Positions 31,671 to 64,000 of a stretch of 64,000 nt of DNA are shown here, piece by piece. Under the pieces are notes generated by a model. It worked only from the letters and a program-made list of their open reading frames with translations. It was not told where the DNA came from and made no database searches. The position numbers were made by a program, and so were the translations under genes. Positions within the stretch are counted from its first letter, which is position 1, and every line of letters begins with the position of its first letter. Source of the stretch: Candidatus Sulfotelmatobacter sp. (lineage in GTDB: Bacteria > Acidobacteriota > Terriglobia > Terriglobales > Acidobacteriaceae); NCBI GenBank assembly GCA_049583505.1, contig JBAUVZ010000217.1, positions 362 to 64,361 on the forward strand, read 5' to 3'.

Positions 31671-31682
31671 AAAACCTCCTTT

Positions 31683-33830: not shown

Positions 33831-33846
33831 GCTGAGGCGCGCAAAA

Positions 33847-34428
33847 TCACACGTCGAAGAAGACTGTTTCGCGATCTCCTTGAAGTATCACATCGAACAG
33901 CCAATATCCGGGACGGGCTGGATCCCGGCGCGCCATGAGCGTGTCCCGCCGCTCGGGCGGAATCAGTTGGAGCACTGGGTCCTTGTCGTTGGCGGCATCT
34001 CCAGCGAAATAAACTCGCGTGTAGAGCTGCTTCAGCATTCCGCGGGCGAACACCGCAAGGGTCAGATGCGGCGCCTGCAACGTGCCGTTGGGAACGCGTC
34101 CGGGCTTTATGGTCTCAAGCACGCAACTGCCATCTTCTCCAGTGGCGAGACGACCGAAACCGATCCATCCCGGATCGAGCAGTTTGGGTTGCGAATCGTC
34201 CCGATGGTTGTACTTGCCATTGGAGTCAGCCTGCCAAATTTCCAGCATCGCATCATTAACCGGGACGCCGTCGCCATCCAGTACGCGAAACGTGATCCAT
34301 ACCCGTTCTCCCTTGGCCTGCGGACCTGCGACACACCGGACGCAGTGCTCGTCGGTGGTCAGCTCAATCCGGAAAAATGGGCCGACCGTCTGCGAGGGGG
34401 TCGGGACCAGATTCGTGTCAGAGTTCAA
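33847..34428 (-). CDS. pcaG: Protocatechuate 3,4-dioxygenase alpha subunit
   Basis: TPSQTVGPFF N-terminal motif, and it lies directly downstream of pcaH. The start is uncertain: TTG 34428 after GGAGG, or TTG 34458. Confidence 0.85.
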   Translation of the reverse strand: MNSDTNLVPTPSQTVGPFFRIELTTDEHCVRCVAGPQAKGERVWITFRVLDGDGVPVNDAMLEIWQADSNGKYNHRDDSQPKLLDPGWIGFGRLATGEDGSCVLETIKPGRVPNGTLQAPHLTLAVFARGMLKQLYTRVYFAGDAANDKDPVLQLIPPERRDTLMARRDPARPGYWLFDVILQGDRETVFFDV

Positions 34429-35140
34429 AAGGTGTGGCCTCCGGCCCGCGCAACACAATGTCGAACTTGAAACCCTTCGCCCATTGCGGCTGCGTCGTCT
34501 CCAGATCGAATTTCGAAATCAGCCGTTGTCTTGCTCGCTCATCCGGTATGGACTGAAAGATGGGATCGTATTCAAACAATGGATCACCTGGAAAATACAT
34601 CTGCGTCACCAGACGGGAGATAAATGCGGCCCCAAAGACCGAAAAGTGAATATGCGCGGGCCGCCACGCATTGTAGTGATTGAACCACGGGTATGCCCCG
34701 GGCTTAATGGTGATGAAACGGTAGGCTCCGTGTTCATCGGTCATGGTTCGACCCGCGCCACTGAAGTTAGGATCGAGCGGAGCGGGATGTTGGTCGTTAA
34801 TGTGCCGATACCTTCCGGCGGAGTTCGCCTGCCAAATCTCGAGAAGCGTGTTGGGGACGGGCCGCCCGTTGCTTTCGAGAACGCGACCGCTCACGATGAT
34901 GCGCTCACCGATCGGTTCACCCGGGTGCTGGCAAGTCAGATCGTTATCTTTTTCCCCGACCCTTTCATGCCCAAGAACCGGTCCGGTAATTTCCGAAAGC
35001 GTATGCGGCAGCAGGATAAGGGGCCTTAAGGGCGCGCGCTTGACAGTGGCCTGGTAAGGCTCATACAACGACGGCGGCTGACTGTCCCTGGGGGGCCGGG
35101 CATAGGGTCTGATTGAAACGCGCGTAGTCACAGAATCCAT
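34418..35140 (-). CDS. pcaH: Protocatechuate 3,4-dioxygenase beta subunit
   Basis: LLEIWQANSAGRYRH...DPNF.G.GR..TD..G.Y.F.TIKPGAYPW...NAWRPAHIHFS is the intradiol dioxygenase signature with its Fe ligands. Confidence 0.9.
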   Translation of the reverse strand: MDSVTTRVSIRPYARPPRDSQPPSLYEPYQATVKRAPLRPLILLPHTLSEITGPVLGHERVGEKDNDLTCQHPGEPIGERIIVSGRVLESNGRPVPNTLLEIWQANSAGRYRHINDQHPAPLDPNFSGAGRTMTDEHGAYRFITIKPGAYPWFNHYNAWRPAHIHFSVFGAAFISRLVTQMYFPGDPLFEYDPIFQSIPDERARQRLISKFDLETTQPQWAKGFKFDIVLRGPEATPFEL

Positions 35141-35225
35141 GCATCTCCTGGGGTCGACGCGCGCACTTTCGGCAAGAGAGTCATCGCTCGTTTCCGACCA
35201 CTGATCGTTCGCTTAAAGTCGCCGC

Positions 35226-36719: not shown

Positions 36720-36782
36720 GTCTCCTCCTGCTTGTACCAACTCAATCTGAATCGTAATTTCTCGTGCGCTTTTTCAGATGCT

Positions 36783-38282: not shown

Positions 38283-38443
38283 GCTCTGATCTCCCCAATC
38301 TGCGGGAGGAATGCCCATGATCCCGCTGAGTGCAGAGGCAAGGAGGGATTTGCATCGCACTTGCGGTTGAAGGTGGACTCTGTTTCTCAGCAAATGCTCG
38401 AATTGCCCCGCTACCCAAAACCCCTACCACGTTTTCGCCCGTT

Positions 38444-42885: not shown

Positions 42886-43743
42886 TTACCGGATTCCCGG
42901 CACGGCCAGCAGCTCCCCAAGGCTGCGTAGGACACGGTGTGGCCTTCTGCCCGGAGGCTGCCTGGCCCAGTCGGACGCTTTCGAGATGCCCGTGGTCACC
43001 CCGAAACCCACGGCGCCCCCTTGTCGCGCCATAATCATTTCGACCAGAGGATCGTCTCCGACCACCCCCACCTTGCTCTTGGGGATGCCCAGCCTTTTCG
43101 CCACTAACCTCAATGCGTGGAGGGATGGTTTCCCGGTGAGAATCATGGGCACGCGTGTGATCCTGCGCACCGCTGCCGAGATCGCGTAGGAATAACCCAT
43201 GGTCTTGCCGCCAGCAGTAGCGAAAAATGGGACGTCCGAAGCTACATACAGCTCGGCCCCGTTCCAGATCGCCTTCACGGCAGCCTCGATGTCTTTCATG
43301 CGGCAGTCGGGATGCCATCCGATGTAGACGGCATCGACACGGTCAGTACCTTCGTCGTTGGGGAAAACCGCCTGCATTCCTGCCCGTGCCAGCGGCTGTC
43401 CAACGCCGGGGGTCCCTAACACCAGAACTCGCTCAACACTGCGGCGGGGCATAAGGTCGGCGGCCACGCTGGAGGGAGTGAGCAGAGCCTCATCGGAGAT
43501 CGGCAGGCCGACAGCGCGCAGCTTGGGCGCCTGTTCTTCCGGTGGATAGTTCGTTCCATTGGTGAGGACAACGAAAGGAATGCCGCGAGCCTTTAATGCG
43601 TTCAGTATCTCAACGGCGCCGGGCAGTACTTGATATCCGCTTAGGGAACGATCACCCAAGACCAAGGTGCCATCGAGGTCAAACACAAAACCCTGTACGG
43701 GTCTGAGCCGTCCATCCTTGCGAAGGCTCGATCTGTGTTTCAT
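42886..43743 (-). CDS. HAD-IIA family phosphatase (NagD / p-nitrophenylphosphatase-like)
   Basis: DLDGTL nucleophile motif, LTNG and a C-terminal GDDP motif. The ATG overlaps the upstream stop (ATGA 43740-43743). Confidence 0.8.
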   Translation of the reverse strand: MKHRSSLRKDGRLRPVQGFVFDLDGTLVLGDRSLSGYQVLPGAVEILNALKARGIPFVVLTNGTNYPPEEQAPKLRAVGLPISDEALLTPSSVAADLMPRRSVERVLVLGTPGVGQPLARAGMQAVFPNDEGTDRVDAVYIGWHPDCRMKDIEAAVKAIWNGAELYVASDVPFFATAGGKTMGYSYAISAAVRRITRVPMILTGKPSLHALRLVAKRLGIPKSKVGVVGDDPLVEMIMARQGGAVGFGVTTGISKASDWARQPPGRRPHRVLRSLGELLAVPGIR

Positions 43744-45233
43744 GCTCTCGCCTTGCGCCGCGCCGGCGTGCCGTTCAACTCCAGCCTGAAGCCAGGCTTC
43801 TCAACCGACAGGCGTCCGATGTCGCTACGCGCTGCAAGCTGGCGAAGCAAGTGAATCACGGGGGCGAGGTCGGGATTGTAGGTTTGCGATGCGGGTCGAG
43901 CAACTTTCATGGCGTCGACTTGCTCGGCGGGCATTGTCGCGCGGAGGAGAAATTCCTCATCGCTCAGTTCGAGCCCAATTCGTCTTCGCAACTCGGCAAG
44001 AGGCAGCATATCCGGTTCCTGGCGAAGCTCGCGCGTGCGGGCCATGGAATCGATACGATCCATGACATCCGGCGCAATGGGCAGACTGGGTTTCCCGAAC
44101 CGGCCAAGGGCGTAGCGAATCACTTCGTCGGGCACAAGGGCGTAGCGTTCCTTGTCCTTGCGAGTTATGTTCATCACCGCCTGGCTCAGCAGCATCTGCG
44201 AGAAGGGGGTCATCACAATCGGCCAGCCCAATTCCTGACGCACCCGGCCTAATTCTTCAATGACTGCGCCTTCCAGGTGTGCGAGCCCGCTTTCCGCCAA
44301 GTGCCGCCGCATGGTGCCAGTCATGCCTCCGGGCAACTGGTGATGGAAGTATGCGGCGTCAAAAGGCTGCGGGCGGCCGGCAGGAAGTCCTTCCGCTTCT
44401 GCCAGGCGTGTGAAATAGCGGCTAACTTCATTCAAAGCTTCGTCGTCAATATCGATCTGGTGCCCGAGTTCTCGCAGATTGGCCACAACCCGCTCGGCGG
44501 GCGGATTGGAAATCCCGTCGCTCGCCGCGCCCGAGGCGCACTGCACCGTGCCCACCCCCCAGTTCGGTGCGTCCATGTAGACCAACTCGCCAAGCCCGAT
44601 AGTGCAGTGCGAGTGGAGTTCCAAAGGTTTGTCACCAATCACGGCCTTGACCGCCGGAATCATGTTGCGCGCGCGCAGCGGGCTCAGAAGTCCGCCGGGG
44701 TCCTTGATATATAGGGCGTCAATATCCGGACTGGCGGCAAGTTTGCGGGCACGCTCTACGTAGCGTGCGTCATCATCAATGGGGCTTACCGTGAACACTA
44801 AAGCAGCGACGACATATTCGGCGCCAACCTGTTTGATCGTGCGCGCGCAGGCGATATTGGAGTCGGCATTGTTCATCGGATCAGCCAGAGCAAAGCGGCG
44901 AATCCCGTTTTTCACGAGCGTAGCGAACGCCAGCTTCATGAATTCAGGGCTTGCCGTCTCCCAGGAAATAAAGCGGAACCCGGTCGAGAGAAATTGAAGT
45001 GGCGTATTCGGTGTGGCCCTAGCCATCAGTCGAATCCGCTCCCATGGGTCTTCTTTTTTGTAGCGGACCGCAACGCCCATGTGGGTCGAGGTAGTGAAGT
45101 CGATGGCCTTGAAACCGACGCGGTCCATGACCGGCGCAATGGTCAGAGTTTTTGCGGTGTCGATGCCAAGGGCCGCCCAAAGACTCTGGTTGCCGTCGCG
45201 GAGTGAAGTCTCAACGATCTGAATATTCGCCAC
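43740..45233 (-). CDS. Biotin-dependent carboxyltransferase subunit, oxaloacetate decarboxylase alpha / pyruvate carboxylase B / transcarboxylase 5S type, without a biotinyl domain
   Basis: IVETSLRDGNQSLWA and the HMGL-like TIM barrel (LELHSHCTIG), followed by a PYC_OADA-like region. The protein ends without an AMKM segment. Confidence 0.85.
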   Translation of the reverse strand: MANIQIVETSLRDGNQSLWAALGIDTAKTLTIAPVMDRVGFKAIDFTTSTHMGVAVRYKKEDPWERIRLMARATPNTPLQFLSTGFRFISWETASPEFMKLAFATLVKNGIRRFALADPMNNADSNIACARTIKQVGAEYVVAALVFTVSPIDDDARYVERARKLAASPDIDALYIKDPGGLLSPLRARNMIPAVKAVIGDKPLELHSHCTIGLGELVYMDAPNWGVGTVQCASGAASDGISNPPAERVVANLRELGHQIDIDDEALNEVSRYFTRLAEAEGLPAGRPQPFDAAYFHHQLPGGMTGTMRRHLAESGLAHLEGAVIEELGRVRQELGWPIVMTPFSQMLLSQAVMNITRKDKERYALVPDEVIRYALGRFGKPSLPIAPDVMDRIDSMARTRELRQEPDMLPLAELRRRIGLELSDEEFLLRATMPAEQVDAMKVARPASQTYNPDLAPVIHLLRQLAARSDIGRLSVEKPGFRLELNGTPARRKARA

Positions 45234-45236
45234 AGT

Positions 45237-45686
45237 TCATGCCTCTGGACGCACGCGCATCAGAACTTCGCCATACTCGACCGCTCCGCCGTTCTTCACC
45301 AATATCTCAACTACCTCGCCTTTTACGCCCGCACGGACCGTGTGCATGAGTTTCATGACTTCGATGATGCCGACCATTGTCTCCTCCGCGACCTTCGACC
45401 CAACTTCCACGAACGGAGGCTCACCCGGCTTGGGCGTGACATAGAAGATTCCCAGCAGTGGAGCGGTGATTTCCAGCAGGCCCGGTTCAGATGCCGGCTT
45501 TGGTGCCGGCTGTAGCGGCGAATTTGGCGGCGGCGAGCCTGGTGGCGCGGAAGCGGAAGCCTGCGGCAGCGCAGACCCTCGCTGTAGACTTAATTTCACA
45601 CCATCCATCTCGAGCGTCAATTGATCGAAGCTCGATTCCTCGAGGATGCGCATGATCTCGGCCACATCTTTGGCCGTGAGCGTCAA
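45237..45686 (-). CDS. Biotin carboxyl carrier protein (BCCP)
   Basis: C-terminal GIIEVMKLMHTVRAGVKGEV (biotinyl-Lys in EVMKL) and a Pro/Ala-rich linker. The TTG start is preceded by GGAGG and overlaps the upstream stop (TTGA 45683-45686). Confidence 0.85.
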   Translation of the reverse strand: MTLTAKDVAEIMRILEESSFDQLTLEMDGVKLSLQRGSALPQASASAPPGSPPPNSPLQPAPKPASEPGLLEITAPLLGIFYVTPKPGEPPFVEVGSKVAEETMVGIIEVMKLMHTVRAGVKGEVVEILVKNGGAVEYGEVLMRVRPEA

Positions 45687-46732
45687 CGGCGGCCTCCAAA
45701 GATGTTCATCACATGCGAAAGCGGATTCTCCGCCGGCTTCGCAACGGGGGCTTTGTCTTTGCCAGACCAGACCGTCTCGGGACGGCTCTGCAACAAAATG
45801 ATCTCGCCCCGGTGATCAATCGCCCATTCGATATCCTGGGGCCGCCCGTAATGACGCTCGATTTTGCGGCCAATTTCCGCCAGCGCCTCCAGTTCCTCGT
45901 CGCTAATCGAAGGTGCGCGCCGAAACTCTTCCGGAGTTTCCATATGCTTGATCCCGCCGCTCTCCGCGGGCACGTCTTGTATGCGCTTGTCGGAAATATC
46001 ACGCACCGAAATTTGGCCTGTTATTTTGCCGATGACAAAGCGATCGGGTGTGACTTCACCGCTCACTACAGCGGAGCCGAGACCCCAAGCTGACTCGATG
46101 GTAATCACGGAGCGATCGCCGGTCAGCGGGCTGCGCGTAAACATCACTCCCGCCGAGCGCGCCTCTACCATCTTTTGGACGACGACCGCAATCGCCACTC
46201 CGTTTTCCGGCGTGCCGTCTTTGAGGCGGTACGAGATCGATGGAACGGAGTACAGGCTGGCCCAACAAGATCGGACGTACTCCAAAACAGTCTCGCTGCC
46301 CTTCACCCAGAGATAAGTATCCTGCAGTCCGGCGAAACTGGCTTCCTCCGAATCCTCCGAAGTAGCCGAAGAGCGTACTGCCAATGGCGAACTGAGATCC
46401 GGTCCGCACAGATCTTCATGCGCCGCCACGATATCTGCGCAAACGTCTTCCGGCAACGGCGCGCTCTTGACACGGGTGCGAAGTTCTTCGGACAACAGGC
46501 GAATTTCTCTTAGGTCCTGTAGCGACAGCGCCTCCACCCGTGAGCGGATACGGTTTTCCTTTTCCAGTTCGGCCAAGACTCGTTCAAACCCCTGAGTGGT
46601 TACGACGAAACCAGGTGGCACGGCGATATTGGCGCGGGTCAACTCCCCCAAGGAACCGCCCTTGCCTCCAACCATTGCGCGATCGGCGAGTGTAATCTCG
46701 GCGAACCAACTGATGTTTGCGGTAGAACGCAT
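45683..46732 (-). CDS. PEP synthase/PPDK N-terminal ATP-grasp domain protein (phenylphosphate synthase beta-like)
   Basis: MVGGKGGSLGEL...VPPGFVVTT, RSSATSEDS..ASFAGLQDTYL and DIEWAI are PPDK_N hallmarks. 349 aa, with no swivel or PEP-binding domains. Confidence 0.85.
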   Translation of the reverse strand: MRSTANISWFAEITLADRAMVGGKGGSLGELTRANIAVPPGFVVTTQGFERVLAELEKENRIRSRVEALSLQDLREIRLLSEELRTRVKSAPLPEDVCADIVAAHEDLCGPDLSSPLAVRSSATSEDSEEASFAGLQDTYLWVKGSETVLEYVRSCWASLYSVPSISYRLKDGTPENGVAIAVVVQKMVEARSAGVMFTRSPLTGDRSVITIESAWGLGSAVVSGEVTPDRFVIGKITGQISVRDISDKRIQDVPAESGGIKHMETPEEFRRAPSISDEELEALAEIGRKIERHYGRPQDIEWAIDHRGEIILLQSRPETVWSGKDKAPVAKPAENPLSHVMNIFGGRR

Positions 46733-46746
46733 CGTTGCTTTGAATT

Positions 46747-46788
46747 CCGGCTGTCCAATCCCGACTGTTCAATCCGGCTGTTCAGATA
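46747..46788. repeat. Three tandem ~14-nt copies of CCGRCTGTYCARAT in the cupin / ATP-grasp intercistronic spacer
   Basis: CCGGCTGTCCAATC CCGACTGTTCAATC CGGCTGTTCAGATA. The last copy covers the cupin stop codon (46782-46784). Confidence 0.7.
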
Positions 46789-47333
46789 TAAAGCTGTTTG
46801 TTAATCGGAATGCCGTGCTCGCGGCAATAGCTCTCGTAGTGATTGATGAACCACCACACATCGACCGTTTCGACGAATTTGCCGTTGTCATCGTAAAACT
46901 CGAGCGGCCCCTGGAGCCAACCGAACAACTTGACGCCGTTGGGATGGTCGCTCACGAGGGTATGGACCAGTCCCGGCGTCTCGTAGATGAAGTTGCCGGG
47001 ACCGGCAACCCAATCGTATTCGAGATAGCGGGCGCTGCCCTCGAGGCAGATCATTACGACGGTGCCGCGATGCTTGTGTGTGCCAATGACGCCGGCAGAC
47101 TTTATCCACAGAATGTTACTGAAAATGTTATGGCGAGTATCGAAAAGAAGATGGCGAATTGCGGCATTGGGGCCGAACGGCACCCAGGGACTCTCTTGCT
47201 CCGAAGAGCCGACAAACGTGCCCGCGATGCCGTGCCGCTTGATCACATCCGTATAAGCTTCCGGTACGTCCACGATTTTGTAAGCCGTAGACGGCGGAGC
47301 CGTCATTCTCGTAATGCTCGATGTTGTCATCAT
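46782..47333 (-). CDS. Cupin-fold protein, 2,4'-dihydroxyacetophenone dioxygenase (DAD)-like family
   Basis: Cupin His cluster GTHKHRGTVVMICLEG...PGLVHTL. The family assignment comes from pattern memory only. ATG 47333/47330 is preceded by AGGAGG; the ORF track extends to 47411. Confidence 0.65.
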   Translation of the reverse strand: MMTTSSITRMTAPPSTAYKIVDVPEAYTDVIKRHGIAGTFVGSSEQESPWVPFGPNAAIRHLLFDTRHNIFSNILWIKSAGVIGTHKHRGTVVMICLEGSARYLEYDWVAGPGNFIYETPGLVHTLVSDHPNGVKLFGWLQGPLEFYDDNGKFVETVDVWWFINHYESYCREHGIPINKQLYI

Positions 47334-47424
47334 GCGCCTCCTCGCGCGGCTTGGCCGCGCCGTCAACTCTGCATCTGCGGTGGTTGAAGCTCTCGTACCG
47401 AATGCCGACAAATAGAAAGCAAGA

Positions 47425-49245
47425 CTACTGAAGAATCGTCACCACGCCCCGGCCGCCATCCACGCGAATGCGCTGGCCGTCCTTAATCTTCTGTGTCGCT
47501 GTGCCTGTGCCCACTACTGCCGGCAATCCGTATTCCCGGGCAACGATTGCCGCGTGGCTCATCGAGCCGCCGATGTCGGAGACGGCTGCCGCAATCTTCT
47601 GAAAAACCGGCGCCCAACTCGGGTTGGTAACGTGACAGACGAGAATGTCGCCGCGTCGCAGGCGGTCAATTTCGTCCACCGACATCACCACCCGGGCGAT
47701 GCCCTCGACTACGCCGCTGGACGCGGCGAATCCCTTGATCTCATTGGAATCCGGCTTCTCGCCAGCGGCCAGCCATGAATCCAGGTTTTCACGGGTAATG
47801 CCCCACAGCATGACAATGGCAGGGTCATCAATGACGTCGGGGACGGGGCCCAGGGCCGGGGGAGTTTCGTGCCTCGCCCATTCGGCAATCGCTGCTTTGC
47901 GCTCCTGCACAATCGGCATCCAGCGCGCGGGGCCACGCGGCGGGGAGCCGTTTGACCACGAGGTCATGAGATCGATAATCGCCGCCTCGACTTCATAGTG
48001 AGTCAGGTGAAAAATGTCCTCGGCGTTTGGGAAGAAACCACGCTCGGCCAATAGCGCCCCAAATTCCCGAATCTTGTTAAAGAACAGATTGGTGTACCAA
48101 TGCTCACAATAAAATTTGTGTCCTTCGACGTAAGGGAACACGCGATGCACGAGCTGAATCATCTGGTCATACGCGGCGCGCTCTTGCTCGCTATTGAGCA
48201 GCTCGCGGTAATCATGGATGAGCTGCTGGCGCTCAGCCATCAGCTTGGCGACCGGCCGCTCGATGCGTTCGCCGGCTTTCAAATTGGCGATGTAGCCGGG
48301 CAGCGAGGCAAAGGGCATCGAGAGATCGTCGTTCCAGGAACGATGGTAGTGGTAGAAGCCGTCACCAACATTAATGTTGAACCACGGGTCGCGCGAGACC
48401 GCCAACTCCTCGAGCCACTTCCGGCCAGATTTAGACCGCTCCAGAGCTTGCATGATGTCGCCGGGAGCAGCGCCATCGTGGAAAAGGGCATCGACTCCCA
48501 GTTCAATAGCGCATTTGGCGAGGCGGCGGAGCTCGTCGTCGGGACGAAAGATTTCCGCTTCCATGCCGGCGACCATGCAGGCCACCGTCTGGTCGCTGAT
48601 TTCCGGGAAGGCCTTTTTACAAAAATCAAAGAAAGTAAGATATGCGCCATAGCCGAGCAGGAGAAACTCGAAGTGATGGTGCCACATGCGGAAGTAGCCT
48701 TCGAGCGTCTTCTGGTAGATATCGAGGAGGTAGTGGTTGGAGGCAATGCCGCGCCCAGCGCGGACATGCTCCAGGGGCTCGAACTCGGGCAGCGAAAGCT
48801 TCGGTAGCGCCTCGGCAGCCCGGATCAGGGCCAGCATCTTGTTTTTCCAGTGTGCGAATAATTCTTCCCAGTGCTCGTAGTAATAGAAGGCCCGTTGCTG
48901 GAATTCCTTTGTGCGCCGGGCAATCTCGACAGGATCGGTCACCGCGTTGCCGCCGATGTAGATTCGCCCGTTGATGATGCGGTAATCAATTCCGAGCGTC
49001 GTCGGGAGGCTGTGCACCCGCGTGTTGGCCGCGCCCAGGGCGCAATAAGCGGCTTCTGCCGTGGTGACGTCGAACACGCTCATTGGCTCCGGGAAATGCA
49101 TGGAGTTGTAAAACCAGAAGCGGTCGTCATCTTCTTTGGCGAACTGCATGTAGTAGGGATAGGCGGCTTGCGCCGTTTGCGTGCCCGGGATGACCTTCAA
49201 GGAACTCGGAAGCGGAAAGCATCGCGTGTTGACGGTTGTGCTCAT
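47425..49245 (-). CDS. PEP-utilizing enzyme with C-terminal phosphohistidine swivel domain (phenylphosphate synthase alpha-like)
   Basis: C-terminal VCHVTNPSWAPVFQKIAAAVSDIGGSMSHAAIVAREYGLPAVVG is the swivel His domain. It follows about 480 aa with no ATP-grasp. ATG 49245 is preceded by GGAAGG. Confidence 0.8.
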   Translation of the reverse strand: MSTTVNTRCFPLPSSLKVIPGTQTAQAAYPYYMQFAKEDDDRFWFYNSMHFPEPMSVFDVTTAEAAYCALGAANTRVHSLPTTLGIDYRIINGRIYIGGNAVTDPVEIARRTKEFQQRAFYYYEHWEELFAHWKNKMLALIRAAEALPKLSLPEFEPLEHVRAGRGIASNHYLLDIYQKTLEGYFRMWHHHFEFLLLGYGAYLTFFDFCKKAFPEISDQTVACMVAGMEAEIFRPDDELRRLAKCAIELGVDALFHDGAAPGDIMQALERSKSGRKWLEELAVSRDPWFNINVGDGFYHYHRSWNDDLSMPFASLPGYIANLKAGERIERPVAKLMAERQQLIHDYRELLNSEQERAAYDQMIQLVHRVFPYVEGHKFYCEHWYTNLFFNKIREFGALLAERGFFPNAEDIFHLTHYEVEAAIIDLMTSWSNGSPPRGPARWMPIVQERKAAIAEWARHETPPALGPVPDVIDDPAIVMLWGITRENLDSWLAAGEKPDSNEIKGFAASSGVVEGIARVVMSVDEIDRLRRGDILVCHVTNPSWAPVFQKIAAAVSDIGGSMSHAAIVAREYGLPAVVGTGTATQKIKDGQRIRVDGGRGVVTILQ

Positions 49246-49511
49246 GCGTACCTTCCGATCGACGGCTGTATTTCGCACCCGACCCTACTGAGATTGGACC
49301 GGAGATGTCGATTCCCTTTCCTGCTTTGAAGCCCATGTTCCGCGGCCGGAGAAGACGCTGTCGAGGAGCCTCCGCACAGTGGTTTAGATCCGAAACATAC
49401 CTGCAGTTGGAATCCCCCAGTAATGGCGGAGATTATACCCCTACTCGCAAGGCCCTTTGCAGAGGCTTTCGCAACGACGAATGTTCATCCAGTTACACGA
49501 GCCTATCCCCG

Positions 49512-54211: not shown

Positions 54212-54225
54212 TTCCGTATACTGAA
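54212..54225. promoter_or_regulatory. Operator-like near-palindrome TTCCGTATACTGAA in the fadB-like / ligM-like divergent spacer
   Basis: It differs at one position from the core of the perfect palindrome at 56559-56574. Both are followed by (C/T)GTCG. Confidence 0.45.
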
Positions 54226-54240: not shown

Positions 54241-56552
<2,312 letters not shown>

Positions 56553-56558
56553 CGCACT

Positions 56559-56574
56559 ATTCAGTATACTGAAT
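56559..56574. promoter_or_regulatory. Perfect 16-bp palindrome ATTCAGTATACTGAAT (operator candidate) in the metF / dioxygenase divergent spacer
   Basis: Self-complementary 16-mer starting 7 nt upstream of the metF ATG. A second palindrome, ATGTATACAT, lies at about 56616-56625. Confidence 0.5.
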
Positions 56575-56815: not shown

Positions 56816-57784
56816 GTGGAAAACGAGCCGATAATGGATCTCGCTCATCTCGGCCACTTGGAATTGCTCACTCCCAAGCCGGAAGAGAGCCTGCGGTTTT
56901 TCGTGCAGGTTATGGGAATGACGGAGAGCGGGCGGCAAGGCGACTCGGTCTACTTGCATGCCTATGATGATTATGAGCGGCATTCGCTGAAACTCACGGC
57001 ATCTAAACTCCCGGGTCTAGGCCATGTAGCGTATCGCGCCCGGAGTCCGCAAGCTCTCGAGCGGCGAGTGGCGGCCCTCAAAGGATCGGGCTTCGACATC
57101 GGCTGGACGGAAGGCGACCTGGCACATGGGCCTGCGTTTCTTTGCCAAGACCCGGACGGACATAAGATCGAGCTTTACTACGAAACCCAGTGGTATCAGG
57201 CGCCGCCTGAGCTGCGGCCCGCACTCAAGAATCAGGCGCAGAAATTTCCCGCACGCGGCATCAACGTGCGTCGCCTCGACCACTGGAACGGGCTCGCGGC
57301 CGATGTCAAAGCCAACCGCGAGTTCTTCGAAAGATATCTCGGCTTTCGCTTGACCGAGCAAATTGTCATGGACGACGGCTCGGAAGCCGGCATCTGGATG
57401 ACGTGCACGAATAAAAGCTACGATTTTGCCTACACGCGCGACCACACCGGTGCCACGGGACGCTTTCACCACATCACCTATGCAGTCAACAGCCGGGAAG
57501 AAGTTTTGCTTGCGGCGGATATCTGCCTGGAAAATGGCGTTTACATCGAAACTGGTCCTCATAAACACGCAATTCAGCAGACCTTCTTCTTATACGTGTA
57601 CGAGCCCGGAGGCAACCGGGTTGAGATTGCCAATGCCGGTGCGCGTCTGATCCTGGCCCCGGACTGGAAGCCGATCCGATGGAGTGAAGCCGAACGGAAG
57701 AAAGGACAAGCGTGGGGGCTGAAAACGATCGAATCGTTTCATACGTACGGAACGCCTCCGGTGGAGCCGCAAGCAAAGCCATAG
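56816..57784 (+). CDS. Type I (VOC superfamily) extradiol ring-cleavage dioxygenase, catechol 2,3-dioxygenase-like
   Basis: Two-domain VOC pattern: HLGHLELLT...FF...MG, LGHVAYR, then RLDHWNG...F....LGF and FHHITYAV...GPHKH...FFLYVYEPGGNRVE. Confidence 0.85.
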   Translation: MENEPIMDLAHLGHLELLTPKPEESLRFFVQVMGMTESGRQGDSVYLHAYDDYERHSLKLTASKLPGLGHVAYRARSPQALERRVAALKGSGFDIGWTEGDLAHGPAFLCQDPDGHKIELYYETQWYQAPPELRPALKNQAQKFPARGINVRRLDHWNGLAADVKANREFFERYLGFRLTEQIVMDDGSEAGIWMTCTNKSYDFAYTRDHTGATGRFHHITYAVNSREEVLLAADICLENGVYIETGPHKHAIQQTFFLYVYEPGGNRVEIANAGARLILAPDWKPIRWSEAERKKGQAWGLKTIESFHTYGTPPVEPQAKP

Positions 57785-57811
57785 GCGGCAAGCGGTCAAA
57801 TACATAACACA

Positions 57812-58531
57812 ATGAACAGCAAACGCACAGCCCTCGTCGTGAGCGCCCATGCGGCGGACTTTGTATGGCGGGCAGGCGGGGCGATCGCCTTGTATGCCGA
57901 GCGGGGCTGGGAGGTTACCGTTGTTTGTCTGTCGTTTGGGGAGCGTGGCGAATCGGCGAAACTCTGGCGCGAGCCGGGCATGACGATGGAGAAAGTCAAA
58001 AGCAACAGGAAAGATGAGGCGACGCACGCGGCTGGGATTCTCGGGGCCAAGATGATTTTCTTCGATGTTGGCGACTACCCCATGAGAATTTCGGATAGCG
58101 TCCTTTACGACCTAGCTATGCTTTACCGAAAAGTCCGGCCGGAGTTCGTCCTTACCCACTCCCTCAAAGATCCTTACAATTTCGATCATCCTCTGGTTTC
58201 TCATGCTGCGCAGGAGGCGCGCATCGTGGCGCAGGCGCATGGGCACGAACCGGGCACGCCGGTAATCGGTGCGCCGCCGGTTTTCCTGTTCGAGCCACAC
58301 CAGCCAGAACAGTGCGAATTTAAGCCCCAGTTGCTGCTCGACGTCACTCCAGTTTGGCCCAAGAAATATGAGGCCTTCAAAGCCATGAACGCCCAGGAGC
58401 ATCTCTGGCATTACTACGAGCGGGTTGCGCTGCAGCGCGGTGTGCAGGCCTCGCGCAATTCCAATAAGACCATCAAATATGGAGAAGCCTATCAGCGCGT
58501 ATTTCCGCAGGTCACGGAGGAGCTGGCATGA
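57812..58531 (+). CDS. galB: PIG-L/LmbE family protein, GalB-like 4-oxalomesaconate hydratase candidate
   Basis: [15 protein letters not shown] and the HxxDxH-type PIG-L motif region. It sits in the position of galB, next to the aldolase and the tautomerase. Confidence 0.7.
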
Positions 58532-59205
58532 ACGAACCTGTTGTGGTTCGCAACGTGGAGCAACCGCCTGCCGAAGTCGTGGCCGCCCTGGAAAAACTCG
58601 GTGTAACCACGGTGCACGAAGCGCAAGGACGTTGCGGCCTACTCGCCTCCTACATGCGTCCGATTTTTCCCGGCACCACCATAGCCGGCCCTGCAGTAAC
58701 CGTCTCGCTTCCTCCCGGCGACAACCTGATGATCCACGTGGCCGTTGAAGTATGCCACGAAGGAAATATTCTCGTCGTGGCTCCGACTTCACCCTGCACT
58801 GACGGTTATTTTGGCGAGCTGCTCGCGACGTCGCTCCGTGCGCATGGCGTAACGGGACTAGTGATTGATGCGGGTTGTCGTGATATTCGCCCTTTAACGG
58901 AAATGAAGTTTCCCGTCTGGAGCCGTGCCATCCATTCCCAGGGAACCGTCAAGAGCACACTCGGATCGGTGAATCTTCCGGTGGTATGTGCGGGAGCGCT
59001 GGTGGAAGCCGGTGATGTGATCGTCGCAGATGATGATGGAGTCGTCGTGGTCAAGCGAACCGTGGCGGGCGAAGTGGCCTCGGCCGCGGAGCAGCGGGCG
59101 CGCAAGGAAGATGCGACACGCCAGCGGCTGGCCCGCGGTGAACTCGGACTTGACATCTACGGCTTGCGGAAGAAGGTCGCGGACCTGGGACTGAAATACA
59201 TCTGA
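58528..59205 (+). CDS. ligK: 4-carboxy-4-hydroxy-2-oxoadipate aldolase / oxaloacetate decarboxylase (RraA-like)
   Basis: RraA-fold pattern VHEAQGR..L, GDNLMIH.A......G..LVV and [10 protein letters not shown]....GV.GLVIDAG.RD. The ATG overlaps the galB-like stop (ATGA 58528-58531). Confidence 0.85.
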
Positions 59206-59219
59206 AAGCTCTTGCCGCA

Positions 59220-60317
59220 ATGTTTCAAACCTTGCAAACAGCCATCCCTTGTACGCTGATGCGCGGCGGCACGTCAAAAGGCCCTTTCTTTCTGGCTAAC
59301 GACCTACCCAGCGATGTGCAAACACGGGACCGGGTGTTGCTGGCTGCTATGGGCTCGCCCGATACCAGACAGATCGACGGCATCGGCGGTGCAGATCCTC
59401 TGACCAGCAAAGTCGCCATCCTTTCCCGTTCGTCGCGGCCCGGAATTGATGTCGATTATCTCTTTGCTCAAGTTTCTGTGGACCGTCCGCTGGTCGATGT
59501 GACTCCAACCTGCGGAAACATGTTGGCGGGCGTTGGCCCCTTTGCGATCGAGCGCGGCCTGGTTGCACCCGAAGATCCCATCACGCCGGTGACAATTTAT
59601 ATGGTGAACACGGAAACTGTGGCCGTCGCCCACGTGCCCACGCCGGGTGGCGAAGTTACCTATGCCGGGGAAGCATCGATTGCCGGCGTCCCGGGTACGG
59701 CGGCCGCGATTCGCATCGATTTCCGCGATACTGGTGGTTCGGTTTGCGGCGCCCTATTGCCGACCGGCAACATGATCGACCAGATCGACGGAATCGAAGT
59801 GACCCTGATCGACAACGGCATGCCTATGGTTGTGCTGCGCGCTTCAGATCTTGGGAAATCCGGGTACGAAACCCCGGTGGACCTTAACTCCGACCAGGAA
59901 CTCAAAACACGTCTGGAGGCAATTCGTATTCTGGCGGGGGAGCGCATGGGCTTGGGCGACGTGCGTTCGAAGGTGGTCCCGAAGATGACCCTGATCGCGC
60001 CGCCGCAAGCTGGTGGGCACGTAATGACGCGCACTTTCATTCCGCACAAATGTCACTCGGCCATCGGAGTCTTGATGGCGGTGACGGTGGGCACGGCGTG
60101 CATTCTTCCCCAGTCAGTCGCCCGTGGCATCGTGCGCCCCCAAGACGGGCCAGTGCAACTACTCTCGATTGAGCATCCCAGCGGCGAATTTTCGGTTGAG
60201 TTTCAGGTGGAACACAGTGGCGGCGGTCTGAAGGTGATGCGCTCGAGCCTGATTCGAACAGCTCGTGCGCTTTTTCGGGGCGAGTTGCTGGTGCCGGCAA
60301 GCGTGTGGGAGGGATAA
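59220..60317 (+). CDS. galD: 4-oxalomesaconate tautomerase (PrpF family)
   Basis: IPCTLMRGGTSKGPFF N-terminus and CGNMLAGVGPFAIE are PrpF/GalD family hallmarks. Confidence 0.8.
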   Translation: MFQTLQTAIPCTLMRGGTSKGPFFLANDLPSDVQTRDRVLLAAMGSPDTRQIDGIGGADPLTSKVAILSRSSRPGIDVDYLFAQVSVDRPLVDVTPTCGNMLAGVGPFAIERGLVAPEDPITPVTIYMVNTETVAVAHVPTPGGEVTYAGEASIAGVPGTAAAIRIDFRDTGGSVCGALLPTGNMIDQIDGIEVTLIDNGMPMVVLRASDLGKSGYETPVDLNSDQELKTRLEAIRILAGERMGLGDVRSKVVPKMTLIAPPQAGGHVMTRTFIPHKCHSAIGVLMAVTVGTACILPQSVARGIVRPQDGPVQLLSIEHPSGEFSVEFQVEHSGGGLKVMRSSLIRTARALFRGELLVPASVWEG

Positions 60318-60373: not shown

Positions 60374-61093
60374 TTAACGGTCGAGAGCTGAGGTTTCTGA
60401 AGCTGCCCCCACCGATCGCAAACCACCACGCGAAAGATTCATGCTTATCTTTGCCCCTATTGCGTGCTCGGCCATCAGGGCGGCCACGCGAGAGCTCTCA
60501 CCGTTTTCCAGCGCCTGAACGATGGCGTGATGCTGGCGGTGCGAGTAGAGCAGGTGGTCGTACATGCGTGGAAGATCAATTTTGTCAAAAGCAATGGCAT
60601 GCGCCGCCGCAAATGGAATTCGCCCGTTGCGTTCGATCGCCTCGGTGACCACTTTGCTCCCAGATCCCTCGACAATCAGCGAATGGAATTGTCGATTCAT
60701 GTCGCCGTACCGCGCTTCGTCTGCCAGAACCAGCTGTCCTTTGGCAATGATTTCGTCTCCCTCACGGAGACATTCGTGTAGAGAGCGGATGAGGCGCCGG
60801 GACGGACCTTGTTCCGCTAACATACGAGCCGCCAGGGCTTCGAGCGCACCGCGTACGTCGATCGCATCCATGATTTCCTGCGGCGTGAATGCCCTCACAA
60901 CAAAACCGCGAGTGTCGAGCTGAGTCAGTACCCCTTCCTGCGCGAGGATGGGTAGAGCCTCACGCACCGGGGTCCGGGAAACTCCGAGCTTGACCGCAAG
61001 TTCGACCTCTCGCACGCGCTCGCCCGGAGGCAGTTCCCCGTGGAGAATCATTTCGCGTATTCTGACGATTACCCTTGAATTCTTTCCCGCCAT
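60374..61093 (-). CDS. GntR family transcriptional regulator (FadR/FCD subfamily)
   Basis: ELAVKLGVSRTPVREALPILAQEGVL wHTH region plus a C-terminal all-helical FCD-like domain. Confidence 0.85.
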   Translation of the reverse strand: MAGKNSRVIVRIREMILHGELPPGERVREVELAVKLGVSRTPVREALPILAQEGVLTQLDTRGFVVRAFTPQEIMDAIDVRGALEALAARMLAEQGPSRRLIRSLHECLREGDEIIAKGQLVLADEARYGDMNRQFHSLIVEGSGSKVVTEAIERNGRIPFAAAHAIAFDKIDLPRMYDHLLYSHRQHHAIVQALENGESSRVAALMAEHAIGAKISMNLSRGGLRSVGAASETSALDR

Positions 61094-61187
61094 TTGTATG
61101 CAAATCGGACACGCCTGCAATTCGCGCCGAAATCCGTGCAGATTCTACTACGCGAGTTGCAGGTTCCCGGGTTGAGATTAACAGTCC

Positions 61188-62036
61188 TCACGCCTCGAGC
61201 CCAAAGAAGCGCATAGCATTTTCCTTCAGGATGAGCGGGCGCACTTCATCGCGAATCGACAGCTTCTGGAAATCGGCCAGCCATCGGTCGGGCGAAATCA
61301 GCGGATAGTCCGAGCCGAACAACACCTTGTGTTTGAGCAGGGTGTTCGCATATTGCACAAGTATCGGCGGGAAATATTTGGGCGACCAACCCGAGAGATC
61401 GATGTAAACCTGCGGCTTGTGCAGGCACACGGAGATGGCCTCGTCCTGCCAGGGAAATGAGGGGTGCGCCATGATAATTGGCATATCTGGGAAGTCGACG
61501 GCCACGTCGTCAATATCCATCGGGTTGCCGTATTTCAAGTGAACCCCGCCGCCCCCGGGCAACCCTGCGCCGATGCCGCTATGGCCAGTATGAAAGATCA
61601 CCGGCAATTTGGCCTGGTTGAGGACTTCGTAAAAAGGGTAGACCAATTTGTCATTGGCATGGAACTGTTGCACGGGAGGATGGAGCTTGAAACCGCGAAT
61701 GCCTCCCGCTGCGATAAGCCGTTGCGCTTCCTCCACCGCCGCCTTGCCGCGCATGGGGTCGACGCTGGCGAAGGCAAACATGATGTCGGAGTTTTCGGCG
61801 GCGAAGGCCGCGACCTCGTCGTTCGGAATGGGTGTGCGTCCGGTAAGCCGCTCGTCCACGCTGAAAATCACGCAGCCGATTTTGCGTGAGCGATAATACT
61901 CAGCCAGAGCATAGCGGTCGCGGTCCACGCCGGAGTTGCCGAAGTATTTCTTTACTGCTTCGTTGACCGCATTCTGGCCGTCTTCACTTTCAAAGTGAAC
62001 GTGCACGTCAATGGCAATCAGGTCGCGAGCGTTCAT
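61188..62036 (-). CDS. Amidohydrolase-2 (PF04909) family hydrolase; CouO-like beta-ketoacyl-CoA hydrolase or LigI/LigW-like enzyme are candidates
   Basis: The AIDVHVHF metal/His motif, GFKLHP, IFHTGHS and GSDYP are present. ATG 62036 overlaps the pcaL stop (ATGA 62033-62036). The ORF-track start at 62177 adds an R-rich extension inside pcaL. Confidence 0.75.
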   Translation of the reverse strand: MNARDLIAIDVHVHFESEDGQNAVNEAVKKYFGNSGVDRDRYALAEYYRSRKIGCVIFSVDERLTGRTPIPNDEVAAFAAENSDIMFAFASVDPMRGKAAVEEAQRLIAAGGIRGFKLHPPVQQFHANDKLVYPFYEVLNQAKLPVIFHTGHSGIGAGLPGGGGVHLKYGNPMDIDDVAVDFPDMPIIMAHPSFPWQDEAISVCLHKPQVYIDLSGWSPKYFPPILVQYANTLLKHKVLFGSDYPLISPDRWLADFQKLSIRDEVRPLILKENAMRFFGLEA

Positions 62037-63232
62037 TTCTTCGTCTCGTGGGGTAGCTGTAACGCCGGCTGCAATCCTGTGTCTTCCAACTCTTTCTGGG
62101 CGATGTGAAACGCCGTGTTGGCCGCGGGCACGCCGGCATAAATCGCGGTTTGAAGCAGCAGCTCTTTCAGATCGCACGGCTCCAATTCATGCCGCAATCC
62201 CGAGCGCAGGTGCATGGCAAACTCTTCCCAGCGCCCGAGTGCCGCCATGGTTGCGAGCACAAGCAATCGCCGCGTCCGTACATCCAATTCCGGACGCGTC
62301 CAGATGGCTCCCCACGCGTAGCGCGTGATCAAATCTTGAAATTCGCGGTTGAAATCGTTGGTCGCAGCAATGGCTCGATCGACGTAATCATCGCCCAGCG
62401 TTGCACGGCGCATGGCGAATCCTGCGTTGGAGCGCTGAGCATCATCCGGCTGGGGCAGCAGAAATTCGAGCAGCGCTGCAAGAAATGACCGGGGCCGCTC
62501 CAGGTTTGAAAGGTGAGCTGCCGGCAACTGCAGAGAACGCGCGTTCGGAATTTGCTTCGCCAAGACTTCGCCGTTGCCTGCCCAGGGAGTTGAAACATCG
62601 CGATCCCCTGAAAGTATTAGGGTCGGAACACGAATGCTCCGCAGGGTCTCCCGCGAATCGAAGTCGCGCAGCGCGGCACAACATCCGGCGTATCCGACTG
62701 GATCAGTTCCCAACAACAACGATTTCACCGCGTTCGCGTAGGCGTTGGCATTGGCCAGAGTTTGTGGCGAGAAAAATCGCTGCATCGCCATATCCACGAT
62801 GGCAGCCATTCCTCCCTCACTTACCATTTTGATTCTCGTTTCCCAGTTGCTGCGCTCGCCAAACCTTGGCGAGGTGTTGGCGAGAACCAGGCTAGTGAGG
62901 CGATCTGCGGCGTTCACGCCAAGCCACTGGCCAATTGCGCCTCCTAACGAGAGGCCGCAAAAGGCAAACTTGCGAATGCCCAGGGAATCAGCCAGGGCGA
63001 GCACATCCCGTCCGAGCAGTTCGATCGCGTATTCGCCTTTGGTTACGTCCGAAGCGCCATGGCCGCGGGTGTCGTATCGCAATACCTGAAAATGGGAAAG
63101 CAGATCGGGAACTTGCGGGGCCCACATCGCATGGTCGGTGCCGATCGAATGGGAAAGGACCAGCACCGGCTTTTCAGGCATTCCCTCGAGCCGGTAGAAC
63201 AGCCGGGCACGGTTGCAATTGGCGAATGGCAA
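62033..63232 (-). CDS. pcaL: Fused 3-oxoadipate enol-lactonase / 4-carboxymuconolactone decarboxylase
   Basis: N-terminal alpha/beta hydrolase (VLVLSHSIGTD, nucleophile elbow GLSLGG). The C-terminal CMD domain is also present (WGAIWTRPELDVRTRRLLVLA...QTAIYAGVPAA). Confidence 0.85.
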   Translation of the reverse strand: MPFANCNRARLFYRLEGMPEKPVLVLSHSIGTDHAMWAPQVPDLLSHFQVLRYDTRGHGASDVTKGEYAIELLGRDVLALADSLGIRKFAFCGLSLGGAIGQWLGVNAADRLTSLVLANTSPRFGERSNWETRIKMVSEGGMAAIVDMAMQRFFSPQTLANANAYANAVKSLLLGTDPVGYAGCCAALRDFDSRETLRSIRVPTLILSGDRDVSTPWAGNGEVLAKQIPNARSLQLPAAHLSNLERPRSFLAALLEFLLPQPDDAQRSNAGFAMRRATLGDDYVDRAIAATNDFNREFQDLITRYAWGAIWTRPELDVRTRRLLVLATMAALGRWEEFAMHLRSGLRHELEPCDLKELLLQTAIYAGVPAANTAFHIAQKELEDTGLQPALQLPHETKK

Positions 63233-63236
63233 GTTC

Positions 63237-64000
63237 TTAATGCTCCCTCTTGTTCGAGGTGGCGCTATTCAGCAATGCCACGCGGAACGCCTCCGCCGAT
63301 CCGAGGTACTGCTCTGGGATCGCGAGTTGGTCAAGCATAGAACGATTCAGGCGTGAGCTGACTTCGGGCAACTCTGCCAACAGTGCAACGAGATCTTTCT
63401 TCTGTGCAATGCTCTTTTGTATTGCGTCCTCCAGGAGCTTACGAGCAACGTCTCGCCCCAAGTCAGCGGCCAGGAGCATCATCGCCCGCTCGGCGAAGAT
63501 CAGGCCCCTTGTGTTGGCAATGTTTTGCCGCATGCGCGCTGGGTCCACCGAAAGCCCCTCCGCAACTTCTGCCAGCGATGATGCCGCCGACCCCGTCGAC
63601 TGAACTATGGACGCTACCGTCGGCCATTCAGATTGCCAGCCACCGAGGGCGCGTTCGTGCTCCTGCACCATTGCCGAAAGAAAACTCGCGACCAACACGG
63701 GAACTCGCTCGGCGGCGGCAAGAGTCAGCGCGCAAGCAATTGGATTTCGTTTGTGCGGCATGGTGGAGGACCCGCCTCTGCCCTCGCCACTCGGTTCGGA
63801 CACTTCGGCCACTTCGCTCTGCATCAGCAAACTGATGTCACGCGCCATCTTGCCCAGCGAACCGGTCAGTACACCGCAGCAGCAGACGAGATTGGCCAGG
63901 CGGTCGCGATGCGTATGCCAGGGCGCTTCGGGGCAGCGCAATCCAAGTTCTTCGGCGAGCGCGCGAGCGACCACTGTTCCTTTATCTGCCAATGATGCCA
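63237..64000 (-). CDS. pcaB: 3-carboxy-cis,cis-muconate cycloisomerase, C-terminal part (gene continues past the right edge)
   Basis: Fumarate-lyase signature GSSTMPHKRNP. It sits directly upstream of pcaL with a 4-nt gap. The reading frame is open to the window end. Confidence 0.85.
   Translation of the reverse strand, partial: ASLADKGTVVARALAEELGLRCPEAPWHTHRDRLANLVCCCGVLTGSLGKMARDISLLMQSEVAEVSEPSGEGRGGSSTMPHKRNPIACALTLAAAERVPVLVASFLSAMVQEHERALGGWQSEWPTVASIVQSTGSAASSLAEVAEGLSVDPARMRQNIANTRGLIFAERAMMLLAADLGRDVARKLLEDAIQKSIAQKKDLVALLAELPEVSSRLNRSMLDQLAIPEQYLGSAEAFRVALLNSATSNKREH

Follow-up and report, generated by a model that had tools for sequence, protein, structure and literature searches.

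Which enzyme opens the aromatic ring in an operon whose other genes encode the lower pathway of gallate catabolism and which has no LigB-type dioxygenase gene? The question is raised by a 64,000-nucleotide stretch of contig JBAUVZ010000217.1 of Candidatus Sulfotelmatobacter sp. (the window, in whose coordinates all positions below are given unless a contig is named), which was analysed together with the organism's own 5.64-Mb assembly (511 contigs, 97.3% complete), that of a Terriglobales acidobacterium. At 56816-60317 four genes encode a two-domain VOC extradiol dioxygenase and homologues of GalB, GalC and GalD. We think it probable that this operon serves aerobic gallate catabolism and that the VOC enzyme is a non-orthologous gallate dioxygenase, possibly also acting on 3-O-methylgallate, that makes 4-oxalomesaconate; for substrate and product the argument is one of gene context. 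The four genes are:

56816..57784, + strand: two-domain VOC (type I) extradiol dioxygenase of the Tyr202 clade, proposed gallate dioxygenase (322 aa; PF00903 twice, TIGR03211)
57812..58531, + strand: galB, PIG-L-fold 4-oxalomesaconate (2-keto-4-carboxy-3-hexenedioate, KCH) hydratase (PF02585; PDB 5CGZ)
58528..59205, + strand: galC/ligK, 4-carboxy-4-hydroxy-2-oxoadipate aldolase / oxaloacetate decarboxylase (PF03737, TIGR02798, NF006731)
59220..60317, + strand: galD/ligU, 4-oxalomesaconate tautomerase of the PrpF fold (PF04303, NF033377)

The open reading frames (ORFs) lie exactly where a first-pass annotation of the window had placed them, all four on the plus strand, the letters ATGA by which galB and galC overlap are present at 58528-58531, and the families named there (two-domain VOC, PIG-L, RraA-like and PrpF) were all recovered by Pfam and NCBIfam profile searches. 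The intergenic gaps are 27, -4 and 14 nt for VOC/galB, galB/galC and galC/galD, respectively, and the dioxygenase gene has a GTG start with a Shine-Dalgarno-like sequence, AAAGGTGA, upstream. A promoter and terminator scan of the locus gave nothing above shuffled sequences. Contigs of one rhizosphere metatranscriptome (X20), from a relative about 89% identical, span all four genes and bridge both junctions; assembled contigs do not demonstrate a transcript, DNA carry-over is possible there, and these contigs are not counted as evidence.

The last three genes can be named from their homology to proteins of known function. The PIG-L protein matches P. putida GalB (PDB 5CGZ, '4-oxalmesaconate hydratase') over its whole length (235 residues, E 5.1e-104) and deacetylases no better than 7e-08, which makes the deacetylase activity that had been considered as an alternative for it unlikely. 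The RraA-like aldolase scores 334.8 bits against TIGR02798 ligK, the LigK/PcmE equivalog (cut-off 304.5), is also over the cut-off of NF006731, and matches PDB 3NOJ at E 7.5e-83, and the PrpF protein scores 533 bits against the 4-oxalomesaconate tautomerase model NF033377 (cut-off 440) and matches the oxalomesaconate isomerase structures 6P3H and 6P3J at about E 1e-125 (3e-126 for 6P3J). At the level of sequence GalB, GalC and GalD are orthologue-level matches to characterised enzymes, and these structure and NCBIfam matches firmly identify the route from oxalomesaconate to pyruvate and oxaloacetate.

What feeds this route is narrowed by the gene inventory. The first-pass annotation had noted the absence of a LigB-type dioxygenase from the window and had proposed a genome-wide search; the absence holds for the window, and the whole 97.3%-complete genome contains no LigB-family (PF02900) gene. 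The operon gene is the only two-domain VOC dioxygenase found in the genome, and is the sole candidate found there for making oxalomesaconate. DmpG and DmpF (PF07836, PF09290) of the catechol meta-pathway gave no match in the 97.3%-complete genome. The genome's only intradiol pair, pcaHG, is in the window, as are the other genes of a protocatechuate ortho route:

33949..34990, - strand: pcaG and pcaH, protocatechuate 3,4-dioxygenase (PF00775; converted from C217:34310-35351)
62033..63232, - strand: pcaDC fusion (NF051488, 463 bits, cut-off 390)
63237..63992, - strand: pcaB-like lyase, 3' part (Lyase_1 and ADSL_C)

Protocatechuate therefore has an ortho route of its own, and gallate is favoured over protocatechuate as the substrate of the operon because pcaHG, pcaB and pcaDC are in the window and because neither a 4-carboxy-2-hydroxymuconate-6-semialdehyde (CHMS) dehydrogenase nor a 2-pyrone-4,6-dicarboxylate (PDC) hydrolase lies beside the operon.

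The dioxygenase has the tandem architecture of the two-domain VOC enzymes (PF00903 in two stretches) and scores 342.9 bits against TIGR03211 'catechol 2,3-dioxygenase', a narrow margin over the cut-off of 320.2. It has no match to PF02900, and so is functionally GalA-like at most and not a member of the GalA/DesB family. Its nearest solved structure is chain A of PDB 9WGJ (E 1.3e-118 over the full length, about 60% identity), followed by those of the Rhodococcus AphC/3LM4 type (about 1e-76; 3LM4 3e-76) and then by catechol and homoprotocatechuate 2,3-dioxygenases (about 1e-30; 1e-30 for homoprotocatechuate 2,3-dioxygenase itself, HPCD, PDB 1F1X/2IGA). With HPCD and AphC/3LM4, to which its identity is about 25-45%, it shares the two-domain fold and the 2-His-1-carboxylate triad: H156, H219 and E270 align with HPCD H155, H214 and E267 and are kept in relatives. 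The equivalents of HPCD Tyr257 and His248 in the second sphere (Y260 and H251) and of Asn157 and Trp192 (N158 and W194) are also kept. In contrast, the second-sphere acid-base histidine (HPCD His200, XylE His199, BphC His195) is absent, and Tyr202 in the motif NKSYD stands in its place. This equivalence was found in three pairwise alignments that are gap-free from W194 to D203, and a MAFFT alignment of representatives drawn from a 1.8-billion-protein library agrees with it. The position is His in 3LM4, 7Q2A and 3HPV, and the MAFFT column shows His in all intact full-length relatives that fall outside the clade. Among 120 close homologues 119 retain the Tyr, and NK[STGR]YD is present in 79 of 80 loci.

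The pocket differs from those of the characterised enzymes in a second way. The carboxylate-binding Arg243 of HPCD corresponds to Thr246 in the window enzyme, and around the position of HPCD Arg293 there is a basic motif, ERKKGQAWG at 293-301 (R294-K295-K296), which is ER(K/R)(K/R)GQAWG clade-wide and DIDTGLAVG in the alkylcatechol enzymes; the AphC pocket is without these basic residues. Tyr202 and the basic motif may be adaptations to a trihydroxy-carboxylate substrate. Context differs as well, HPCD and AphC/3LM4 belonging to semialdehyde pathways and the window enzyme being associated with a gal lower pathway. The 9WGJ protein (323 aa) is of the Tyr type, with NKSYD and ERKRGQAWG; it was deposited as 'Catechol 1,2-dioxygenase', a name that is also found as an automatic annotation elsewhere in the family (P0400), and we found no publication for it. 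The phylogenetic placement suggested by the first-pass annotation puts the VOC enzyme in a single Tyr202 clade and not within the His-type extradiol dioxygenases. In the maximum-likelihood tree the Tyr202 rows occupy one side of a single branch (support 97/91), so only one change is needed, and their sister is a small His-type group.

Soil Acidobacteriota, Bradyrhizobium and Xanthobacteraceae very commonly carry homologues 77-96% identical to the window enzyme. Flanks of 8 kb were inspected at 80 such loci (at least 77% identity), 65 of them with full flanks, and galB and/or ligK is present within 8 kb at 44 of the 80, or 37 of the 65. The arrangement of the window, in which VOC-galB-galC-galD diverges from ligM and metF, is seen in twelve Terriglobales loci. 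About 20 proteobacterial loci, mostly of Bradyrhizobium and allies, have galB-galC-PhtD-like-VOC, and in about eight of these a LigI-like gene and TctC lie ahead. Nine loci have the VOC gene followed by an alpha/beta hydrolase gene, then RraA and usually a DUF1932 dehydrogenase gene. Bryobacterales have a DUF6152-VOC pair without gal genes, and in the remaining architecture no partner genes are recognisable. The DUF6152 protein (about 174 aa) is encoded about 0.5 kb upstream of an 87-88% identical dioxygenase in L019, L024, L025 and L028, and about 3.4 kb downstream of the gene in L017; the pairing is another genomic setting of this enzyme. The DUF1932 (6-phosphogluconate-dehydrogenase-like) NAD(P) oxidoreductase, absent from the window and without a role in the known gal pathway, accompanies the VOC-gal cluster in 23 of the 80 loci (L003-L005, L008-L011, L016 and others) and on most plasmids examined (L096-L098, L100-L103).

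Deeper Tyr-type members are 56-61% identical to the window enzyme. Gene orders found in the clade include galD followed by galB-galC-VOC (G133), galB-galC-galD-VOC (Nonomuraea) and the same with an aldehyde dehydrogenase (Aldh) gene after it (L087). The pAt plasmids of Agrobacterium tumefaciens from walnut carry PIG-L-VOC-ligK-4-oxalomesaconate tautomerase followed by a tannase/feruloyl esterase gene, and the same four-gene core is found on plasmids of A. vitis, Thioclava and Rhizobium. In Pantoea piersonii a LysR gene, an aromatic-acid MFS symporter gene and the VOC gene are divergent from galB-ligK-galD, an arrangement that we take to mirror the galR-galT-galA layout of P. putida with the VOC gene in the GalA slot. 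The clade thus adjoins galB/galC(/galD) in at least six gene orders in five phyla, and the Agrobacterium tannase context and the galR-galT-galA-like Pantoea context point to gallate as the substrate. On the Roseomonas gilardii plasmid pRo-1 (L098, 5420-7972) genes for a LigB-type class III dioxygenase, an alpha/beta hydrolase and a Tyr-type VOC enzyme (78% identical) stand in a row, so that both ring-cleavage types occur in one operon on clinical/skin Roseomonas plasmids. The contigs of P0146 and P0173 are too short to show gene context.

The two dioxygenase types also alternate among acidobacterial genomes. GalB orthologues are present in 6 of the 251 genomes sampled from the class (G000, G133, G032, G103, G143 and G197). 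In G000 and G133 galB adjoins the VOC gene and neither has a LigB gene, while in G032 and G103 a LigB-type ORF follows PIGL-RraA in the slot that the VOC gene occupies in G133; these ORFs are under the GalA equivalog cut-off and are therefore called LigB-type only. In G197 the genes are unlinked, and in G143, where galB-galC lies at a contig end, neither dioxygenase type was found. Bradyrhizobium jicamae (G251) and the genome of locus L005 (G254) have the VOC-gal cluster and no LigB gene. This same-slot alternation of LigB and VOC genes is the pattern expected of non-orthologous displacement. The proposal of the first-pass annotation that a VOC enzyme was recruited as a non-orthologous ring-cleavage enzyme feeding 4-oxalomesaconate is in agreement with all the computational checks that were run, gallate and 4-oxalomesaconate being its probable substrate and product. 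Between Acidobacteriota and Bradyrhizobium with its allies (L034-L080, Pseudolabrys etc.) the dioxygenase is 78-81% identical and GalB/GalC only 57-62%, and acidobacterial rows of the tree fall within groups of proteobacterial ones; together these suggest inter-phylum transfer of the dioxygenase gene separately from the lower pathway.

The route that we think most likely would begin with gallate supplied by tannins, or by 3-O-methylgallate via the co-regulated LigM demethylase encoded upstream (see below). Two neighbouring hydroxyls of gallate would bind the Fe(II) or Mn(II) centre, O2 would attack C4 and insert towards C5, and opening between C4 and C5 would give 4-oxalomesaconate directly, with no aldehyde formed, so the operon would need neither a dehydrogenase nor a lactonase. 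GalD would then tautomerise, GalB hydrate and GalC cleave the product to pyruvate and oxaloacetate. Vanillate would be converted by the same LigM to protocatechuate and be degraded separately by pcaHG-pcaB-pcaDC. A bolder idea, which we advance tentatively and would not yet call probable, is that the Tyr202 clade is a mechanistically distinct VOC branch, the first case of VOC-fold gallate opening between two hydroxylated carbons to 4-oxalomesaconate, with a regiochemistry opposite to the proximal habit of type I enzymes. In it Tyr would replace the supposedly indispensable acid-base His, possibly by way of the substrate's third hydroxyl in proton transfer, and gallate cleavage by Acidobacteriota, Bradyrhizobium, rhizobia and many actinomycetes of soil and peat would fall mainly to this clade.

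Use of gallate by a type I enzyme has a precedent. Rhodococcus opacus PD630 has no DesB or LigAB homologues, and deletion of its type I 'catechol 2,3-dioxygenase' AHK27425.1 abolishes gallate consumption; E. coli expressing AHK27425.1 removes gallate, and 4-methylcatechol is a further substrate of the enzyme (Cai et al., Sci Adv 2021, PMC8442903). That study did not identify the product but guessed at 2,3-cleavage, and it reported no link to galB, galC or galD (PMC8442903). No further publication was found to cite AHK27425.1. Its reported ligands, H158, H221 and E272, have the 63/51 spacing of the Tyr202 clade and 9WGJ as opposed to the 62/51 of AphC/3LM4, a comparison made by published numbering only. 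Rhodococcus plasmid matches to the window enzyme are only about 43% identical and AphC-like, and no Rhodococcus protein is among the best 120 actinobacterial homologues. We regard the R. opacus enzyme as a precedent, as partial prior art and as a possible member of the clade. In the literature on VOC, glyoxalase and type I gallate dioxygenases we found no description of the Tyr202 clade or of an oxalomesaconate-forming VOC-fold enzyme; B. ligniniphilus BLC23O, with 283 aa, is a different enzyme.

Among known systems the gal pathway of P. putida KT2440 (GalA, GalD, GalB, GalC, GalT, GalP, GalR) has orthologous GalB, GalC and GalD and the same logic from gallate through oxalomesaconate to pyruvate and oxaloacetate. 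It differs from the window operon in that its ring-cleavage enzyme has the LigB and not the VOC fold and its regulator is of the LysR and not the GntR/FCD family; the window operon is, in addition, co-regulated with a LigM demethylase gene and contains no transporter or porin gene. The syringate branch of Sphingobium SYK-6 and Novosphingobium (DesA, LigM, DesB, DesZ, LigAB, LigU, LigJ, LigK) likewise has a LigM-type demethylase and MetF beside ring-cleavage and lower-pathway genes, a LigK-type aldolase and a LigU-type tautomerase. Unlike the window, SYK-6 has three ring-cleavage enzymes that are all LigB-type and a hydratase, LigJ, of the Amidohydro_2 family in place of the PIG-L protein GalB, and it has DesA, which was not found in the genome studied here. 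The syringate pathway of Pseudomonas sp. NGC7 also uses a LigAB-type enzyme, MgaAB.

Several observations weigh against a gallate dioxygenase. Classical type I enzymes carry out proximal cleavage of 4-substituted catechols, so formation of oxalomesaconate requires an unusual regiochemistry. A source of gallate was not identified, the genome being without DesA; tannase (PF07519) had no match in it either, although control genomes were equally silent in the same search, which deprives that negative of weight. Roughly 45% of the close homologues lack gal genes within 8 kb, among them 85-88% identical ones (the Bryobacterales DUF6152-VOC pairs and many Bradyrhizobium loci), and homologues are also present in the GalB-lacking genomes G144, G162, G186 and G244. 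An alpha/beta hydrolase gene beside the dioxygenase gene (L011, Roseomonas) and LigI-like lactonase and PhtD-like genes in Bradyrhizobium hint at 3-O-methylgallate or another substrate, and an aldehyde dehydrogenase gene adjoining the VOC gene in Thermus oshimai and L087, with pobA nearby in Thermus, fits a protocatechuate-to-semialdehyde route. Finally, there is a fusion with an RraA gene in the His-type sister P0121, and the neighbours of a more distant His-type relative in Nesterenkonia are Aldh, FAH-family and SnoaL genes.

Some of these points belong to the alternative that survives best, an unlikely one in our estimate, that the enzyme is mainly a 3-O-methylgallate 3,4-dioxygenase like DesZ or MgaAB, whose product 4-carboxy-2-hydroxy-6-methoxy-6-oxohexa-2,4-dienoate (CHMOD) would be hydrolysed to oxalomesaconate, or cyclised to PDC, before GalD, GalB and GalC act. 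The gene for LigM, a vanillate/3-O-methylgallate demethylase, has an operator in common with the operon, and in the nine loci with an alpha/beta hydrolase gene the nearest homologues (85-89% identity) directly precede it; Roseomonas also pairs the enzyme with such a hydrolase, and DesC and MgaC, which are known to hydrolyse CHMOD, belong to the alpha/beta hydrolases (PMC12314914). A PDC intermediate would suit the Bradyrhizobium LigI-family lactonase-like gene (298 bits against NF042924, under the cut-off of 500). In the window, however, the operon neither contains nor adjoins an esterase or LigI-like gene, the Amidohydro_2 neighbour having no LigI match, and LigM would already turn 3-O-methylgallate into gallate, to which the tannase and galR-galT-like contexts point in their own right.

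Cleavage of protocatechuate (of the 4,5- or 2,3-type), with an unlinked dehydrogenase oxidising the semialdehyde to a muconate that enters GalD, GalB and GalC, is quite unlikely. LigM makes protocatechuate from vanillate, and the Aldh genes of L087 and Thermus oshimai, pobA near the latter, the Nesterenkonia neighbourhood of the His-type relative and the DUF1932 oxidoreductase that recurs among the loci can all be cited for this route, but the window operon has no dehydrogenase gene, no LigC or LigI partner was seen, and a complete protocatechuate ortho route is encoded in the same window. It is improbable that another pyrogallol or catechol is the substrate, such as pyrogallol from a decarboxylase encoded by an Amidohydro_2 or PhtD-like neighbour, or that gallate undergoes proximal 2,3-cleavage into an undescribed route. 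Amidohydro_2 and PhtD-like genes do accompany the cluster, and the Amidohydro_2 superfamily includes non-oxidative hydroxybenzoate decarboxylases. The Amidohydro_2 gene of the window is, however, on the opposite strand, the close orthologues of GalB, GalC and GalD are enzymes that act specifically on the 4-carboxylated intermediates, and the conserved basic motif lies where HPCD binds the substrate carboxylate; for 2,3-cleavage there is the guess of Cai et al. (PMC8442903). Last, that the enzyme is the plain catechol or alkylcatechol 2,3-dioxygenase of its database label, with coincidental neighbours, is very improbable, since the TIGR03211 score just above cut-off, the AphC/3LM4-type alkylcatechol enzymes as closest characterised structural relatives and the homologues without gal genes are set against a genome lacking the DmpG/DmpF lower meta-pathway, a recurrent gal linkage, the change of the catalytic His to Tyr and basic pocket residues that are missing in AphC.

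The gallate reading draws in the genes and sites on either side of the operon, where the LigM-type demethylase and MetF-like genes upstream and the GntR regulator gene downstream are present as the first-pass annotation had them:

54212..54225: operator-like near-palindrome TTCCGTATACTGAA upstream of ligM, a one-mismatch copy of the 14-mer TTCAGTATACTGAA
54277..55674, + strand: ligM-type tetrahydrofolate-dependent vanillate/3-O-methylgallate O-demethylase (NF047885)
55641..56552, - strand: MetF-like methylenetetrahydrofolate reductase, divergent from the dioxygenase operon (PF02219, 32 bits, cut-off 24)
56559..56574: perfect 16-bp palindrome ATTCAGTATACTGAAT in the metF/VOC spacer, candidate operator of the GntR regulator
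60374..61120, - strand: GntR/FCD-family regulator, convergent with galD (PF00392 and PF07729)

The ligM gene product, the only LigM/DesA-family protein in the genome, scores 754.6 bits against NF047885 (cut-off 580) and 680 against the DesA model, under its cut-off of 800. The operator TTC(A/C)GTATACTGAA has only two sites with at most one mismatch in the 5.6-Mb genome, the one before ligM and the one in the metF/VOC spacer. Both are kept in place in nine related Terriglobales loci (ligM site: L001, L002, L004, L005, L007-L010 and L016), and the spacer site in a tenth, although neighbouring proteins have diverged to 60-80% identity. This shared, conserved operator places ligM, metF and the dioxygenase operon in one regulon, which is probably controlled by the adjacent GntR/FCD protein, whose gene is syntenic in nine related loci. 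A sigma-70-like -10 hexamer, TATACT, overlaps the spacer palindrome, in a region where the promoter scan was not above shuffles. By analogy with the ligM-metF pairing of Sphingobium SYK-6, the MetF-like protein may recycle C1-folate. Two further operator-like sites, with two mismatches each, are 73 bp apart on another contig (C168:24751 and C168:24824), which also carries the sole paralogue of the window Amidohydro_2 gene (C168:12250-12963). The Amidohydro_2 gene of the window, which the first-pass annotation did not mention, lies between the regulator gene and pcaDC:

61188..62177, - strand: Amidohydro_2 protein (Pfam)

Its ORF overlaps pcaDC by 145 nt and its Pfam match begins at residue 56, so that the true start is probably near 62030. 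The protein's sole PDB match is the uncharacterised 3IRS, it is not LigI-, LigJ- or LigW-like by sequence, and an Atlas search for it returned generic names only. The gene travels with the cluster in L001-L003, L006 and L010, and in L006 it precedes ligM and the dioxygenase gene in the same orientation.

Elsewhere in the window, pcaG and pcaH are part of an aromatic island on the minus strand (30564-38393) that also encodes a MetE-like Meth_synt_2 protein, a PQQ dehydrogenase with a cytochrome c domain, an aldehyde dehydrogenase (best NCBIfam match phenylacetaldehyde dehydrogenase StyD, 652 bits, under the cut-off of 850) and a partial Amidohydro_2 ORF. A second minus-strand run (42886-49278) encodes a HAD hydrolase, an HMGL-like/PYC_OADA carboxylase-type protein, a PPDK_N ATP-binding protein and a PEP-utilising mobile domain protein, and resembles a split PEP-synthase-like carboxylation/phosphorylation module beside an AMP-binding ligase gene and a FadB-like gene.

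The gal pathway itself is known; the variation lies in the ring-opening enzyme, a widespread and probably mis-annotated one, with its different fold and active site. Hydrolysable tannins and syringyl lignin, whose breakdown funnels through gallate and its methyl ethers, are large carbon pools of forest soil and peat, habitats in which Acidobacteriota and Bradyrhizobium are dominant. If the clade is the one that cleaves gallate, gene surveys that look only for LigB overlook much of the soil's capacity for gallate cleavage, and thousands of 'catechol 2,3-dioxygenase' database entries are mislabelled; light would also fall on the gallate route of R. opacus PD630, a strain employed in lignin valorisation, for which there is as yet no explanation. 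A homologue 60% identical already has a structure (9WGJ), and cultured carriers exist in B. jicamae PAC68, the Agrobacterium pAt strains and Pantoea piersonii. The natural exchange of His for Tyr at the best-studied second-sphere position of the extradiol dioxygenases would be a ready-made test of their proposed acid-base mechanism.

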